From a bacterium (GTDB lineage: Bacteria; Patescibacteriota; Minisyncoccia; UBA6257; UBA9933): 38,106 nt of DNA. Below, one piece after another: positions 25,385-30,606 of this stretch (its first letter is position 1; each line of letters starts with the position of its first letter). The DNA lies in NCBI GenBank assembly GCA_021791445.1, contig JAJYWO010000014.1:1-38106 (forward strand), read 5' to 3'. A program made the translations under genes and the position numbers. Under the pieces are notes generated by a model. The model made no database searches. It was not told the origin of the DNA and saw only the letters and a program-made list of their open reading frames with translations.

Positions 25385-26221
25385 TTATGAAAACAATGTG
25401 GATAAGGCGATAATTTGTTCAACAGATAAATCCTGCGGCCGCGCGTTTTCTTTTATTCCCAGCCCCGCCAATTTTTCAACCAACTTCTCTTTTGTCATGT
25501 TTAAATTTTTAAATTTTGAAATGTTGTTTACCGCCGTCTTCCTCGGCTGCCTGAATAAAACCTTAATAAATTGATAATAATTATCCGCATTTTGCTTATT
25601 TTGTTCATTCCAACATTCTTGAGAATGTGAGAATGAACATTTCGGCGATAATTTTATTATAGCGCTGTCCACTTTCGGCGCCGGGCTGAAATCCTTTCGC
25701 GAAACATAGCCGATAATTTTCGGTTCCGCCCAAAACTGAACGCTGGCGGCTAAAAGATTCATTTTCGGCGGTTTAGCGCAAACCCTTTCCGCCACTTCTT
25801 TCTGAATAAGCAAAACAATTAAAAACGGCTTGCGCTCCAATTCGCCGATGATTCTAAATAAATAACCGGTTATGTAATAAGGAATATTCCCGACGATTTT
25901 TACATTTTTGAGATTTGAGATTTGAGATTTGATTTCTTTCAGCGCGTCGCCTTCTATAATTTCAACATTTTTATTGTCTTTAAATTTTTCTTTTAATTCA
26001 CTCGCCAATTCTTTATCCTTCTCAATCGCAATAATTTTACAATCCAATTCTTTGCATTTTTCAGCAAGCGGGAATGTCAAAGCGCCCCTTCCCGGTCCGA
26101 TTTCAACCACAACATCGCCCCGTTTCAATTCCAGTGCGTCAACGATTTTCCGCAATTTCGCCTTATTCTTCAAAAAATGTTGTCCGAGATGTTTTTTCGC
26201 GTATGTCATATTTTTTTCCAT
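25385..26221 (-). CDS. rsmA: 16S rRNA (adenine1518/1519-N6)-dimethyltransferase RsmA/KsgA
   Basis: KKHLGQHFL, VVEIGPGRGALT and VGNIPYYIT motifs. The start codon overlaps the stop of the giant upstream gene (TAATG). Confidence 0.9.
   Translation of the reverse strand: MEKNMTYAKKHLGQHFLKNKAKLRKIVDALELKRGDVVVEIGPGRGALTFPLAEKCKELDCKIIAIEKDKELASELKEKFKDNKNVEIIEGDALKEIKSQISNLKNVKIVGNIPYYITGYLFRIIGELERKPFLIVLLIQKEVAERVCAKPPKMNLLAASVQFWAEPKIIGYVSRKDFSPAPKVDSAIIKLSPKCSFSHSQECWNEQNKQNADNYYQFIKVLFRQPRKTAVNNISKFKNLNMTKEKLVEKLAGLGIKENARPQDLSVEQIIALSTLFS
25907..25931. repeat. Tandem heptamer TTGAGAT x3.6 inside rsmA
   Basis: Read directly. It encodes KSQISNLK on the coding strand. Confidence 0.9.
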
Positions 26222-29200: not shown

Positions 29201-30606
29201 TCTTTAACTTCCTTATTTGGTTTTGATGTTGTTTGCTGAGCTTCTTGAACTTGCCGCGTTTGCTGTTTAGCTATTTGGGGATTTTCAACAGCTTGAATTT
29301 TTGTCTCAACCAAAACGGCGGACTCTTTGTCTTCTGAAATATTTTTTTGAAAATTTTCCGCAATAATTTTATTCGCATCCGCGGAAAATTGCTGAGGTTG
29401 ATTAGAATCCTTATCAATGCCCAAAAAATTGTTTATTGAAGAAAAAATTTTATCGGCCGTTGATTCAACTTTGGCAAAAACGGATTGAACGGCATTCTTT
29501 ATCCGAGAACCTTCTCCGACTAAAGATATATTCGGCATTCTAAAATAATTAAAAGGAGATAAATCGATAACAAGCGGGTGTGGCGAATATTCTTTCTTAA
29601 ATTCGATGTCTTGGAAAAATCTATCAATCACACCCGCGCCGTTTAACACGGCTTGACGAGAAAGACGGTCAAAATAAGCATTAAGAATAGGATAATAAGG
29701 GGGTTCGGCTTTTTCTAATAAATAAAAAATTTCATAATTATTTTTTTCTCTATTCCATTGTTTATAAATAAAAACTAATGGAAATTCGTTTCCATTTTCA
29801 TCTTTTCCATACCCAAAATTCCCATCGTCTCTGATAATTTTCGGGTTCTGATATTTTGAATCATTGATTGTGTCTTTGGAAAAGAAATATTTATTGGAAT
29901 ACTCGGCTAAAAAAATTAGATACTCGTCAATTGTCGTTCTATTAATCGGCCTTAATTCTTGTTGGTAAAATTTTGAAGTGATATCTAAATTTTGGCGAGT
30001 ATATATTTTTAAATATTCCTCATAAGGCGAACCGTAATCGCCAGTCGCTTTTTCCAATTCGTGCGCGTGAGTGTCATTTCTGGTATGCTCCGGCACAGTA
30101 GCATCTTCTATAAGATGCAAAATATAACCTAAAATTTGATAAGCCTCTTTTTCATTACCCTTTATCATTTCCAAAATTCCCCGCTCCCAAGTTTTAGCGC
30201 CTTTATAAAATCTGTATTGCGCTTGCAATTCTTCATTATGAATCCAATTTAAAGAAGAAACCGGCGTAATGCCATAGGGCGCGACAAGATTTTGAGAAAC
30301 CAACCTAACCGTTTCTGTATCAAATTTACCGGTATGCTCTCCGCTCCAGCCGGATTTATTTATCGGGTCGTAAAAATGGTTTATCCACCTTGGCGGCGTA
30401 TCTTCTAAAATAGAACCTTGGATAATCCATTCTTTTTGTTGAGGAGTCAGTTTTTTATCGGGAAAAGATAAATTATAAAAATCAACAATCTCATCGGTCA
30501 GGGCCGGATGAGTGGTTTGGTCGTCATAAGCGTTAACGACATTAAAACTAAAAAATGAAAGAAGGGTAATTAAGACAATCTTGAAATTTAAATTGCCGTT
30601 TTGCAT
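26221..30606 (-). CDS. Giant secreted multidomain protein: zinc PLC / P1-nuclease-like domain, two lamin-tail domains (LTD), and two copies of a ~270-aa module
   Basis: Signal peptide. Then HFYDP (about 30363-30380) and H-x3-D-x3-P-x-H (HLIEDATVPEH, 30073-30120), which match the zinc ligand spacing of phospholipase C and S1/P1 nucleases. LTD signatures are ILISEVQL...EFVELYNPNNVSVDLTNWYI (about 28640-28975) and VISEIYPD...DFVELYNPTDALVNLENYSL (about 28075-28412). The duplicated C-terminal modules lie at about 27085-27880 and 26224-27040. Confidence 0.75.
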   Translation of the reverse strand: MQNGNLNFKIVLITLLSFFSFNVVNAYDDQTTHPALTDEIVDFYNLSFPDKKLTPQQKEWIIQGSILEDTPPRWINHFYDPINKSGWSGEHTGKFDTETVRLVSQNLVAPYGITPVSSLNWIHNEELQAQYRFYKGAKTWERGILEMIKGNEKEAYQILGYILHLIEDATVPEHTRNDTHAHELEKATGDYGSPYEEYLKIYTRQNLDITSKFYQQELRPINRTTIDEYLIFLAEYSNKYFFSKDTINDSKYQNPKIIRDDGNFGYGKDENGNEFPLVFIYKQWNREKNNYEIFYLLEKAEPPYYPILNAYFDRLSRQAVLNGAGVIDRFFQDIEFKKEYSPHPLVIDLSPFNYFRMPNISLVGEGSRIKNAVQSVFAKVESTADKIFSSINNFLGIDKDSNQPQQFSADANKIIAENFQKNISEDKESAVLVETKIQAVENPQIAKQQTRQVQEAQQTTSKPNKEVKEEIQQIAQKVEEKATEIIQQEQEEQIQKIATNNKIVFKYTGSGSGGSNGSVYVGSNSGSSAGSWSSGPDNLSAAIIYPQILISEVQLAATSSAYQEFVELYNPNNVSVDLTNWYIQKKTTNGTSFTSFAIADSFSGKTISARGYLLIAHSSSTFIYDVAENYGISDNNTLVLKNPNAEIVDKVGWGTANDCEGSCAANPADNQSIQRIFQNNEFADTDNNANDFEIQTCPSPEAQTNVNCAQTNTETATSTESTATSTATSTISHIVISEIYPDKTGNNFDFVELYNPTDALVNLENYSLKIRKEFTTATSSLSNFSSNHTIAAKSFFLVGLDNYGSSTNAAADISRTSYSLFTSTSSIIYLMGNDTIIDEIYYNPADIAANQSLERKALVNNQCAIIDDSSEFSGNGCDTDSGTDWQSRNSPNPQNSQNFPEPRSAPTTPQNFSAIYNSSAMNIDLTWNASQDYSGTPPAGGSNIAYRITDISASSTFPTTETTSTTRSFSIGENNFGKTYNFSIQAFDNDGLNSATSTISVSIPNATLIIAQQLDYSFSEQGTGNGQFYQYLGNGLLGSPENITFHAKFLSGSNNPAYYFEAAFWQSDNPDYSNLTLVSTNTCYRTGGFGPENNCPNFGFQYNIDKNYTIPIQQNFIFNPSKYYKVKFFTYQATAVFYGSSDAGSYKYGEAARDNGGGTETDSSVKDIYFKIESSEPIQISSDVNVAESVAQNFGASYSTNTLELSLTWDKPRYFDENSPVLTYKITDSSYLVSSSTLVLPEINTSATSTIITISEVGRKYKFSIQAFTDSGTSTLTALSEDIFIPYSLLSQFVIAGQSDYSVSEVGTGNGEFYQTVGNNLSGDLGAIAIKFSGPTGHYLSVYLYQYADSSYSNAENILYDAVFCTNRPGPGEINYPSPLCSDYYLDSNTVTIPVRNNFTFNPEKYYKLFFITHQSQSTFYGSGDENSYSNGQATKNSGGNEIPTNSIKDVYFKILSAISL
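27783..27800. repeat. Second copy (inverted) of the 18-nt palindromic element, ATCCGCCAGCTGGCGGAG
   Basis: Exact reverse complement of 2386-2403. It encodes PPAGG within the giant protein. Confidence 0.9.

Follow-up and report, generated by a model that had tools for sequence, protein, structure and literature searches.

Patescibacteria, ultrasmall and host-dependent, account for much of the diversity of bacteria. Their life on other cells is generally ascribed to their inability to make lipids or nucleotides. The enzymes that take lipids or nucleotides from their hosts are essentially unknown. Two described enzyme groups stand closest to the protein reported here, the secreted zinc-dependent phospholipases C (PLCs) of bacteria and the S1/P1 nucleases, which share one superfamily. 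In the PLCs the ligand atoms of the N-terminal residue are its backbone N and O. The S1/P1 nucleases include the surface 3'-nucleotidase/nucleases of purine-auxotrophic trypanosomatids. A further comparison is offered by the extracellular nuclease ExeM, in which a lamin-tail domain (LTD) contributes to nuclease activity (PMC6085458). In this study, we analysed a 1461-amino-acid (aa) protein encoded on contig JAJYWO010000014.1 of the Patescibacteriota assembly GCA_021791445.1; the whole stretch of 38,106 nucleotides is referred to as the window. Our results suggest that this protein is probably a tri-zinc phosphodiesterase that is exported by Sec, is joined by a long linker to several binding modules and works with a small membrane-anchored partner. 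In the literature, we found no paper describing this architecture in bacteria of the candidate phyla radiation (CPR).

Results

Domain order and export

The gene and the domains of its product were located as follows.

26221-30606, minus strand: open reading frame of the putative surface protein, 1461 aa
30529-30606, minus strand: signal peptide, residues 1-26, with predicted cleavage between VNA and Y; the sole hydrophobic segment of the protein
29572-30528, minus strand: zinc PLC / P1-nuclease-fold domain, a putative phosphodiesterase (the head), residues 27-345 (Pfam, AlphaFold2 (AF2), Foldseek, hhalign)
28972-29571, minus strand: low-complexity linker, residues 346-545, Q/E/K-rich and then G/S-rich (composition; no Pfam match)
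28492-28971, minus strand: LTD1, approximately residues 546-705 (best Pfam LTD stretch 546-654)
27913-28410, minus strand: LTD2, approximately residues 733-898, with PNPQNSQ at its end (second Pfam LTD stretch, local alignment, motif)
27619-27909, minus strand: fn3 domain 1, approximately residues 900-996 (Pfam fn3; alignments with gp130 fn3 chains over 900-992)
27073-27609, minus strand: jelly-roll module copy 1, residues 1000-1178 (hidden Markov model (HMM) envelope, AF2, weak Foldseek matches)
26764-27051, minus strand: fn3 domain 2, approximately residues 1186-1281 (Pfam fn3, best stretch 1193-1276; sidekick-2 fn3, E 1e-3)
26224-26763, minus strand: jelly-roll module copy 2, residues 1282-1461 (HMM envelope; 42% identity with copy 1)

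An original prediction, made from the sequence of this DNA alone, had described an extracytoplasmic protein, and the signal peptide bears this out. Residue conservation was assessed in 80 species-representative relatives (38-78% identity). Position -1 of the predicted cleavage site was A, S or G in 79 of the 80, and position +1, the first mature residue, was Tyr in 75, Phe in 3 and Trp in 1. A hydrophobicity scan of the 1461-aa protein revealed no C-terminal anchor, the N-terminal signal peptide being the only hydrophobic segment.

The whole protein scored 96.9 bits for LTD in two stretches (cutoff 34.3) and 35.7 bits for fn3, also in two stretches, whereas a scan against NCBIfam matched no family. 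Thus the two LTDs that had been claimed are present. The strings quoted with the prediction were found at residues 77 (HFYDP), 164 (HLIEDATVPEH), 891 (PNPQNSQ), 982 and 1263 (FSIQAF), and 1022 and 1307 (GTGNG); the two further C-terminal strings start at residues 1165 and 1448. All domains of the protein are acidic (pI 4.1-5.2), so domain pI was rejected as a discriminator between functions, except as weak evidence against electrostatic binding of the LTDs to DNA. The protein occurred unchanged on 8 metagenomic contigs, with identical neighbours.

The head belongs to the PLC/P1 superfamily

In Pfam, the head matched Zn_dep_PLPC (PF00882) with 27.2 bits in the whole protein and 31.0 bits as an isolated domain, a marginal pass of the 26.8-bit cutoff, and the match spanned only profile positions 2-98 of 167. 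The same family was matched at E<=1 by 43 of 74 family members. The S1-P1 nuclease model (PF02265) gave no match to the window protein at E<=1 and was not among the 25 Pfam families listed for the 74 members at this threshold.

We searched the head-family profile against all PDB sequences. The results showed only bacterial PLCs, namely 1ah7 of B. cereus (2e-4) and 8cqm of Listeria (2e-3), and the alignment placed H164, D168, H174 and E196 opposite the zinc ligands H118, D122, H128 and E146 of PLC. A direct phmmer search of the full protein against PDB sequences returned fn3 matches only; the PLCs were visible only with the family profile. Alignment to PLC_Bc by hhalign gave a probability of 95% (E 3.8e-8) and additionally placed H77 of HFYDP opposite His69; residues 87-157 of the PLC_Bc sequence used here were checked against the PDB profile alignment.

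The AF2 model of the head, built from 74 sequences, reached a pLDDT of 93.5 and a pTM of 0.93. It is all-alpha except for a three-stranded sheet, and it has a long C-terminal helix. Foldseek against the PDB returned 16 PLC or alpha-toxin chains (E 5e-4 to 4e-3), among them Listeria PlcB, with a probability of 1.0 to 2fgn, 1ah7, 1ca1 and 8cqm. The target-normalised TM-score was 0.54-0.60 for PLC chains of about 245 aa and 0.36-0.42 for the longer alpha-toxins (1ca1, 0.40). The best S1/P1-type nuclease was 3w52, with E 0.21 and a TM-score of 0.33-0.38.

All homology measures therefore put the head closer to PLCs than to nucleases. It is a clear member of the PLC/P1 superfamily, to which the S1/P1 nucleases also belong at a greater distance than the PLCs; the PLC/P1-nuclease zinc fold named in the original prediction was confirmed by Pfam, by AF2 with Foldseek, and by hhalign.

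Putative metal site

The nine zinc-ligand positions of PLC_Bc are W1, H14, D55, H69, H118, D122, H128, H142 and E146. H69, H118, D122, H128 and E146 aligned to H77, H164, D168, H174 and E196 of the head, and we assigned H33 and D69 by order and invariance. The PLC ligand His142 stood opposite Gly192, and we propose the invariant H180 as its putative replacement. In the 80 relatives, D69, R73, N76, H77, W121, H164, D168, P172, H174, R176, D178, H180 and E196 were invariant, and H33 was kept in 79 of them and fell in an alignment gap in one. The eight putative metal ligands (H33, D69, H77, H164, D168, H174, H180 and E196) were thus unchanged wherever aligned, as were R73, W121, R176 and D178, indicating purifying selection on an active site. 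An incomplete set of zinc ligands or a failed LTD profile would have spoken against the prediction; instead, eight ligand-type side chains are kept and the LTD score is well above its cutoff.

The ninth ligand would come from Tyr27, in place of the Trp of PLCs and P1. Since the N-terminal ligand atoms are backbone N and O, Tyr at +1 may retain this function. Taken together, the conserved residues indicate that the enzyme is secreted and that a tri-metal site as in PLC/P1 nuclease would be formed by its free N-terminus together with eight side chains. The backbone atoms of Tyr27 and the eight side chains would hold three zinc ions, and these metals would activate water, leading to cleavage of a phosphodiester bond. 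On this basis we consider it likely that the head is an active tri-zinc phosphodiesterase.

A small membrane protein is the conserved neighbour

Genomic context was compared in the best 80 of at least 565 species-level loci, with flanks of up to 8 kb, and in 7 metagenomic loci. The relevant features upstream of the gene are as follows.

30633-31193, minus strand: partner gene, encoding a 186-aa protein with one transmembrane helix and an NTF2-like (DUF4878-like) ectodomain (synteny, profiles)
31277-31306, minus strand: best sigma-70-like promoter match of the region, TTGATA-18-TATAAT (11/12, consensus match only), upstream of the partner gene

In 74 of the 80 species-representative loci, the PLC-like gene was immediately preceded by a homologue of the partner gene in the same orientation; of the 6 loci without it, 4 have hardly any sequence upstream. 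By our estimate, the median gap between the two genes was approximately 8 nt, and the gap was below 100 nt in 71 of the 74. Six of the 7 metagenomic loci also carried the partner. The truly conserved neighbour is therefore this small membrane protein, which the original prediction had overlooked.

The transmembrane helix of the partner covers approximately residues 33-55, and its globular domain would lie outside the cell. The ectodomain carries a conserved motif, DTYGGKTPQET...GD.ELASKYF...GIWKI. DUF4878 was matched weakly by 27 of 68 partner members, and the partner profile gave only marginal matches among PDB sequences, to NTF2-fold designs. The partner family comprises at least 1233 clusters of standalone, unnamed proteins of 150-200 aa, and those named by organism are almost all from Patescibacteria.

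An IS200-like Y1_Tnp gene (31346-32050, minus strand) precedes the pair here and in 14 of the 80 loci, and it is 40% identical to its counterpart in one of them (L004). Such recurrent placement, odd for a mobile element, suggests a domesticated or repetitive-extragenic-palindrome-associated Y1 enzyme.

Distribution of the family and its modular tails

With each GTDB species represented by a single genome, a relative is encoded in at least 565 genomes, and nearly all of them are labelled Patescibacteria. The head was matched by 111 database proteins, nearly all named 'hypothetical'; the matches named by organism all came from metagenome-assembled genomes (MAGs) of Patescibacteria/Parcubacteria type, with one labelled Omnitrophota. 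The 54 complete relatives have a median full length of approximately 1245 aa, and their C-terminal parts contain LTD in 43 (80%), right-handed beta-helix in 12, PKD in 8 and fn3 in 8. The tails of the PLC-like family (loci L011-L090) are highly modular, and the conserved head appears to be re-targeted through exchange of binding modules. Together these features make the head a distinct branch, marked by Tyr at +1, the extra sheet and helix, giant tails rich in LTDs, a near-obligatory partner and an almost exclusive occurrence in Patescibacteria; the relocated third-site histidine may be a further mark of it.

We then compared the tail modules of the window protein. LTD1 aligns with LTD2 and with the LTD of a 283-aa protein encoded nearby (below). 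Both LTDs are strongly acidic (pI 4.1-4.3), which makes simple electrostatic binding of DNA by them unlikely. The original prediction had also reported a tandemly duplicated module of about 270 aa with no assigned identity. The duplication is real, with 106 identities over 281 aligned columns (38%), whereas the module proved to be composite: each copy consists of an fn3 domain, whose F strand is FSIQAF, followed by a domain of about 180 aa.

The AF2 model of the 180-aa module (pLDDT 92.4) is all-beta, with a beta-sandwich jelly-roll fold. Its Foldseek matches were weak (E 1e-4 to 1e-3, identity 8-15%) and comprised phage baseplate, minor tail and fibre proteins, PHR domains, CocE C-terminal domains and carbohydrate-binding modules (CBMs). 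The best phage match was the phi812 baseplate (9eui_Q, TM-score 0.67), and mycobacteriophage Douge gp20, Bxb1 and several actinophage minor tail proteins were also matched. Foldseek thus gave no confident specific identity, only generic phage-tail, PHR and CBM sandwiches. We read the jelly-roll as a putative surface- or ligand-binding module.

The module is rare. An exhaustive search of 1.84 billion proteins gave 42 representatives at E<=1e-3, 12 of them at E<=1e-10; a word-indexed database search gave 4 matches only. Most representatives carry no Pfam domain. The full architecture recurs in one protein of 1457 aa (P0117), in an N-terminally incomplete one (P0116) and in a Wolfebacteria MAG (L023). 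Distant relatives usually have the module directly after the signal peptide; in 3 of them two modules are joined to an LCAT-type lipase domain, and one carries CBM96.

A second LTD protein of the window, also noted in the original prediction, was borne out.

32090-32941, minus strand: second LTD protein, secreted or anchored, 283 aa (Pfam LTD, 54 bits)

This protein ends in PNPQNSQF, and its LTD weakly matched NCBIfam ExeM. The PNPQNSQ(N)F motif had been taken as a special feature shared by the two proteins. It turned out to be the generic C-terminal edge of an LTD, with the consensus PxPQNS in an alignment of 54 family tails. By BLAST, a homologue of the LTD region of the 283-aa protein lay separately upstream of the PLC-like gene in 1 of the 80 loci (L046), and the other 14 matches fell within the LTDs of the PLC-like gene itself. 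We regard the 283-aa protein as a neighbour of the conserved gene pair.

Candidate substrates

The original prediction had offered either an extracellular nuclease or a membrane-active lipase. Both stay in consideration, as homology favours phospholipid and fusions to SNase or HhH domains favour nucleic acid. With a probability that we put a little short of even, the protein is a surface-associated enzyme-adhesin whose preferred substrate is host membrane phospholipid; we give lipid as a substrate the same weight. Nucleic acid is a plausible though less favoured substrate, and another phosphodiester polymer is an unlikely one.

If phospholipid is the substrate, the enzyme-adhesin would be exported by Sec and held at the cell surface, and the linker, the two LTDs, the two fn3 spacers and the two jelly-rolls would either hold it there or direct it to a surface, for which the host bacterium's envelope is the most likely candidate. 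A phospholipase C reaction would then release diacylglycerol and a phospho-head-group from host phospholipid, for a cell without lipid synthesis of its own. The partner might serve as anchor, as inhibitor or immunity protein, or as receiver of the product. On the topology assumed here, the partner would be anchored in the membrane and face outward, an arrangement better suited to shielding against a membrane-active enzyme, or to taking over its product, than to inhibiting a nuclease. Other observations also count for phospholipid. The distant relatives of the jelly-roll include the three fusions to LCAT-type lipases, and its likeness to phage receptor-binding and tail domains agrees with a surface-directed adhesin. 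It has been reported that CPR bacteria do not synthesise lipids but obtain them from other cells (PMC7242380).

Several findings weigh against phospholipid as the substrate or against a PLC-like enzyme. The Pfam score for Zn_dep_PLPC is marginal, and the identity of the head to real PLCs is only 11-15%. The N-terminal ligand residue is Tyr instead of Trp, and His142 of PLC has a Gly at its aligned position. Beside the putative metal site stand two invariant arginines, R73 and R176, to which a polyanionic substrate would be suited. The protein has no recognised lipid-binding domain of the PLAT or C2 kind. A staphylococcal nuclease (SNase) domain occurs in 4 of the 54 complete members, and a ComEA-like HhH_3 domain together with an LTD in one further member. 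In addition, LTDs are typical partners of extracellular nucleases (PMC6085458).

These last points lead to the best-supported alternative, which we hold to be possible at somewhat better than one chance in three: the head may be a P1/S1-like nuclease or 3'-nucleotidase that degrades extracellular or host nucleic acid at the surface, with the LTDs assisting as in ExeM/Xds. In that case, nucleosides and phosphate would be released for a nucleotide-auxotrophic cell, a consequence that we regard as equally tentative. SNase products are 3'-phosphorylated and are substrates of P1-type 3'-nucleotidases, so the SNase fusions to the head would make sense for a nuclease; the HhH_3 fusion also points to nucleic acid. 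The tri-zinc ligand set is common to both enzyme classes, and the Y27 to H33 spacing (6) is closer to that of P1 (W1 to H6) than to that of PLC (W1 to H14). The high frequency of LTDs (43 of the 54 members) also agrees with a nuclease, given the aid that the LTD lends to ExeM (PMC6085458). In S1/P1 enzymes the third position after the catalytic Asp is kept as Lys or Arg (PMC5201275), to which the invariant R73, four residues after D69, may be compared.

Nevertheless, PF02265 was absent from the families reported for the window protein and the 74 members, and the Foldseek match to an S1-type nuclease (E 0.21, TM-score 0.33-0.38) stands against values of about 1e-3 for PLCs. The strongly acidic LTDs make electrostatic DNA binding unlikely, and in Pfam the protein is without the OB-fold or EEP domain of ExeM/Xds. 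The basic residue near the catalytic Asp was rejected as a discriminator between nuclease and PLC, because alpha-toxin also has Lys three residues after its Asp.

It is considerably less probable that the enzyme acts on another envelope polymer, such as teichoic-acid-type polyol phosphates, phosphorylated glycans or sphingolipid-like lipids, with the C-terminal modules as glycan binders. Such a role would agree with the frequent right-handed beta-helix (12 of 54) and PKD (8 of 54) domains of the tails, which are typical of glycan-directed surface proteins, with the CBM-like and phage-receptor-binding-protein-like jelly-roll and the CBM96 of one distant relative, and with R73 and R176, which would suit anionic polymers. 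However, we know of no member of the PLC/P1 superfamily with a substrate of this kind. Finally, a catalytically dead adhesin using the PLC-like fold only as a binding head is very improbable, for although PLC His142 lacks an aligned counterpart and Tyr stands in place of Trp1, eight ligand-type residues are retained wherever aligned in 80 species with 38-78% identity, which is hard to explain without a metal site.

Neighbouring genes

Downstream, the gene meets that of an rRNA dimethylase.

25385-26221: rsmA/KsgA rRNA dimethylase gene (Pfam RrnaAD, 1e-47)

The original prediction had pointed to a TAATG stop/start overlap with rsmA, which is present in the sequence, as is a same-strand run into PrgI-like, VirB4-like and type IV secretion system (T4SS)-pilin-like genes. 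The prediction had further stated that the gene heads a T4SS-like train and is coupled to rsmA, which would make the protein a component, substrate or accessory of the adjoining system, co-regulated with rsmA by translational coupling. Contiguity on one strand, the overlap and the lack of a terminator-like site between the genes speak for such an arrangement. The synteny results did not bear it out: the 80 loci, with flanks of up to 8 kb, contained no VirB4, no PrgI, one type IV coupling protein and one rsmA, and neither rsmA nor T4SS genes were nearby in the 7 metagenomic loci. Even in L011, at 78% identity the closest relative, the roughly 4 kb downstream contain no rsmA homologue, and the protein of the window has a Sec signal peptide. 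A T4SS role is largely refuted by synteny, and we hold it to be highly unlikely. A misleading association with the T4SS-like locus is thereby removed.

Other genes of the window were also noted. Two secreted or membrane proteins of 590 and 293 aa (22718-24490 and 24487-25368, both minus strand) lie between rsmA and the T4SS-like genes and belong to no Pfam family; in the 590-aa protein, the signal sequence is followed by a Gly/Ala repeat of GAAAGGGK type. The VirB4/TraG-like ATPase region (16236-18620, minus strand) consists of three consecutive overlapping open reading frames (217, 154 and 442 aa), with the P-loop domain only in the last, and may reflect a frameshift, gene decay or an error of assembly. 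Two divergent genes for T4SS coupling-protein-like (TrwB/VirD4) proteins (3439-5085, plus strand; 5424-6767, minus strand) lie about 10 kb from the PrgI, VirB4 and pilin genes. A nucleoside diphosphate kinase is encoded at 12308-12922 (minus strand); it matches Pfam NDK in two stretches, the best of which starts at residue 96 (profile position 58). A 124-aa protein of repeated treble-clef zinc-finger motifs is encoded at 34434-34808 (minus strand; Pfam zf_Tbcl_2, 5e-13).

Discussion

In this study, we defined a large, uncharacterised and nearly all-Patescibacteria branch of the PLC/P1 tri-zinc phosphodiesterases. The analysis establishes the fold, the conserved ligand positions, the signal for export, the order of the domains and the pairing with the partner gene; the binding of metal, the catalysis, the substrate, the targeting to a surface and the function of the partner are inferences. 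As candidates for host-directed scavenging or attack, its members can be put to the test. Beyond the individual protein, the enzyme and its partner might form a dedicated host-harvesting cassette of Paceibacteria-type Patescibacteria, a proposal that we offer as speculative and rather unlikely. In such a cassette, the tethered enzyme would attack phospholipid of the host envelope, or nucleic acid freed at the contact site. The NTF2-like partner would bind the product, whether hydrophobic or phosphorylated, and pass it into the symbiont, or would shield the symbiont's own scavenged membrane. If true, this would give a molecular path by which CPR bacteria take up lipids and nucleotides, as they have long been postulated to do.

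Among known systems, the zinc-dependent PLCs (PF00882; PC-PLC 1ah7, PlcB 8cqm and the C. perfringens alpha-toxin N-domain 1ca1) are all-alpha and secreted, as is the head described here. Three elements can be aligned between them, namely the histidine of HFYDP, the block H-x3-D-x3-P-x-H and the glutamate of Y-E, and both have a signal peptide and a first mature residue presumed to be a metal ligand. In contrast to the PLCs, with which it shares 11-15% identity, the head has Tyr for the N-terminal Trp, leaves His142 unaligned (H180 being the proposed substitute), and is about 75 residues longer owing to the extra three-stranded sheet and the long C-terminal helix. The protein also lacks a PLAT-like C-domain, carries LTD, fn3 and jelly-roll fusions and has a near-obligatory small partner gene, and its family is confined almost entirely to Patescibacteria.

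With the S1/P1 nucleases (PF02265), the head has in common the superfamily, the tri-zinc ligand logic, the short spacing from the N-terminus to the first His and a basic residue near the catalytic Asp. The S1/P1 enzymes of trypanosomatids also share a biological logic with it, that of a surface salvage enzyme in an auxotroph. Unlike these nucleases, however, the head gives no profile match and only a weak fold match (E 0.21), and no nucleoside-binding-site residues are identifiable in it. ExeM of Shewanella and Xds of Vibrio resemble the window protein in their signal peptide, in an LTD beside a phosphoesterase and in their extracytoplasmic location (PMC6085458), but their catalytic domain is an EEP domain with OB-fold regions, whereas here the fold is PLC/P1 and Pfam shows neither an EEP nor an OB match.

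The 180-aa module shares its fold with the jelly-rolls of phage minor tail, baseplate and receptor-binding proteins (9eui_Q, Douge gp20 and the Bxb1 tail tip) and with PHR and CBM sandwiches, with TM-scores of up to 0.67; it differs from them in that the matches reach only E of about 1e-4 to 1e-3 at 8-15% identity and in that its sequence family is rare (42 representatives).

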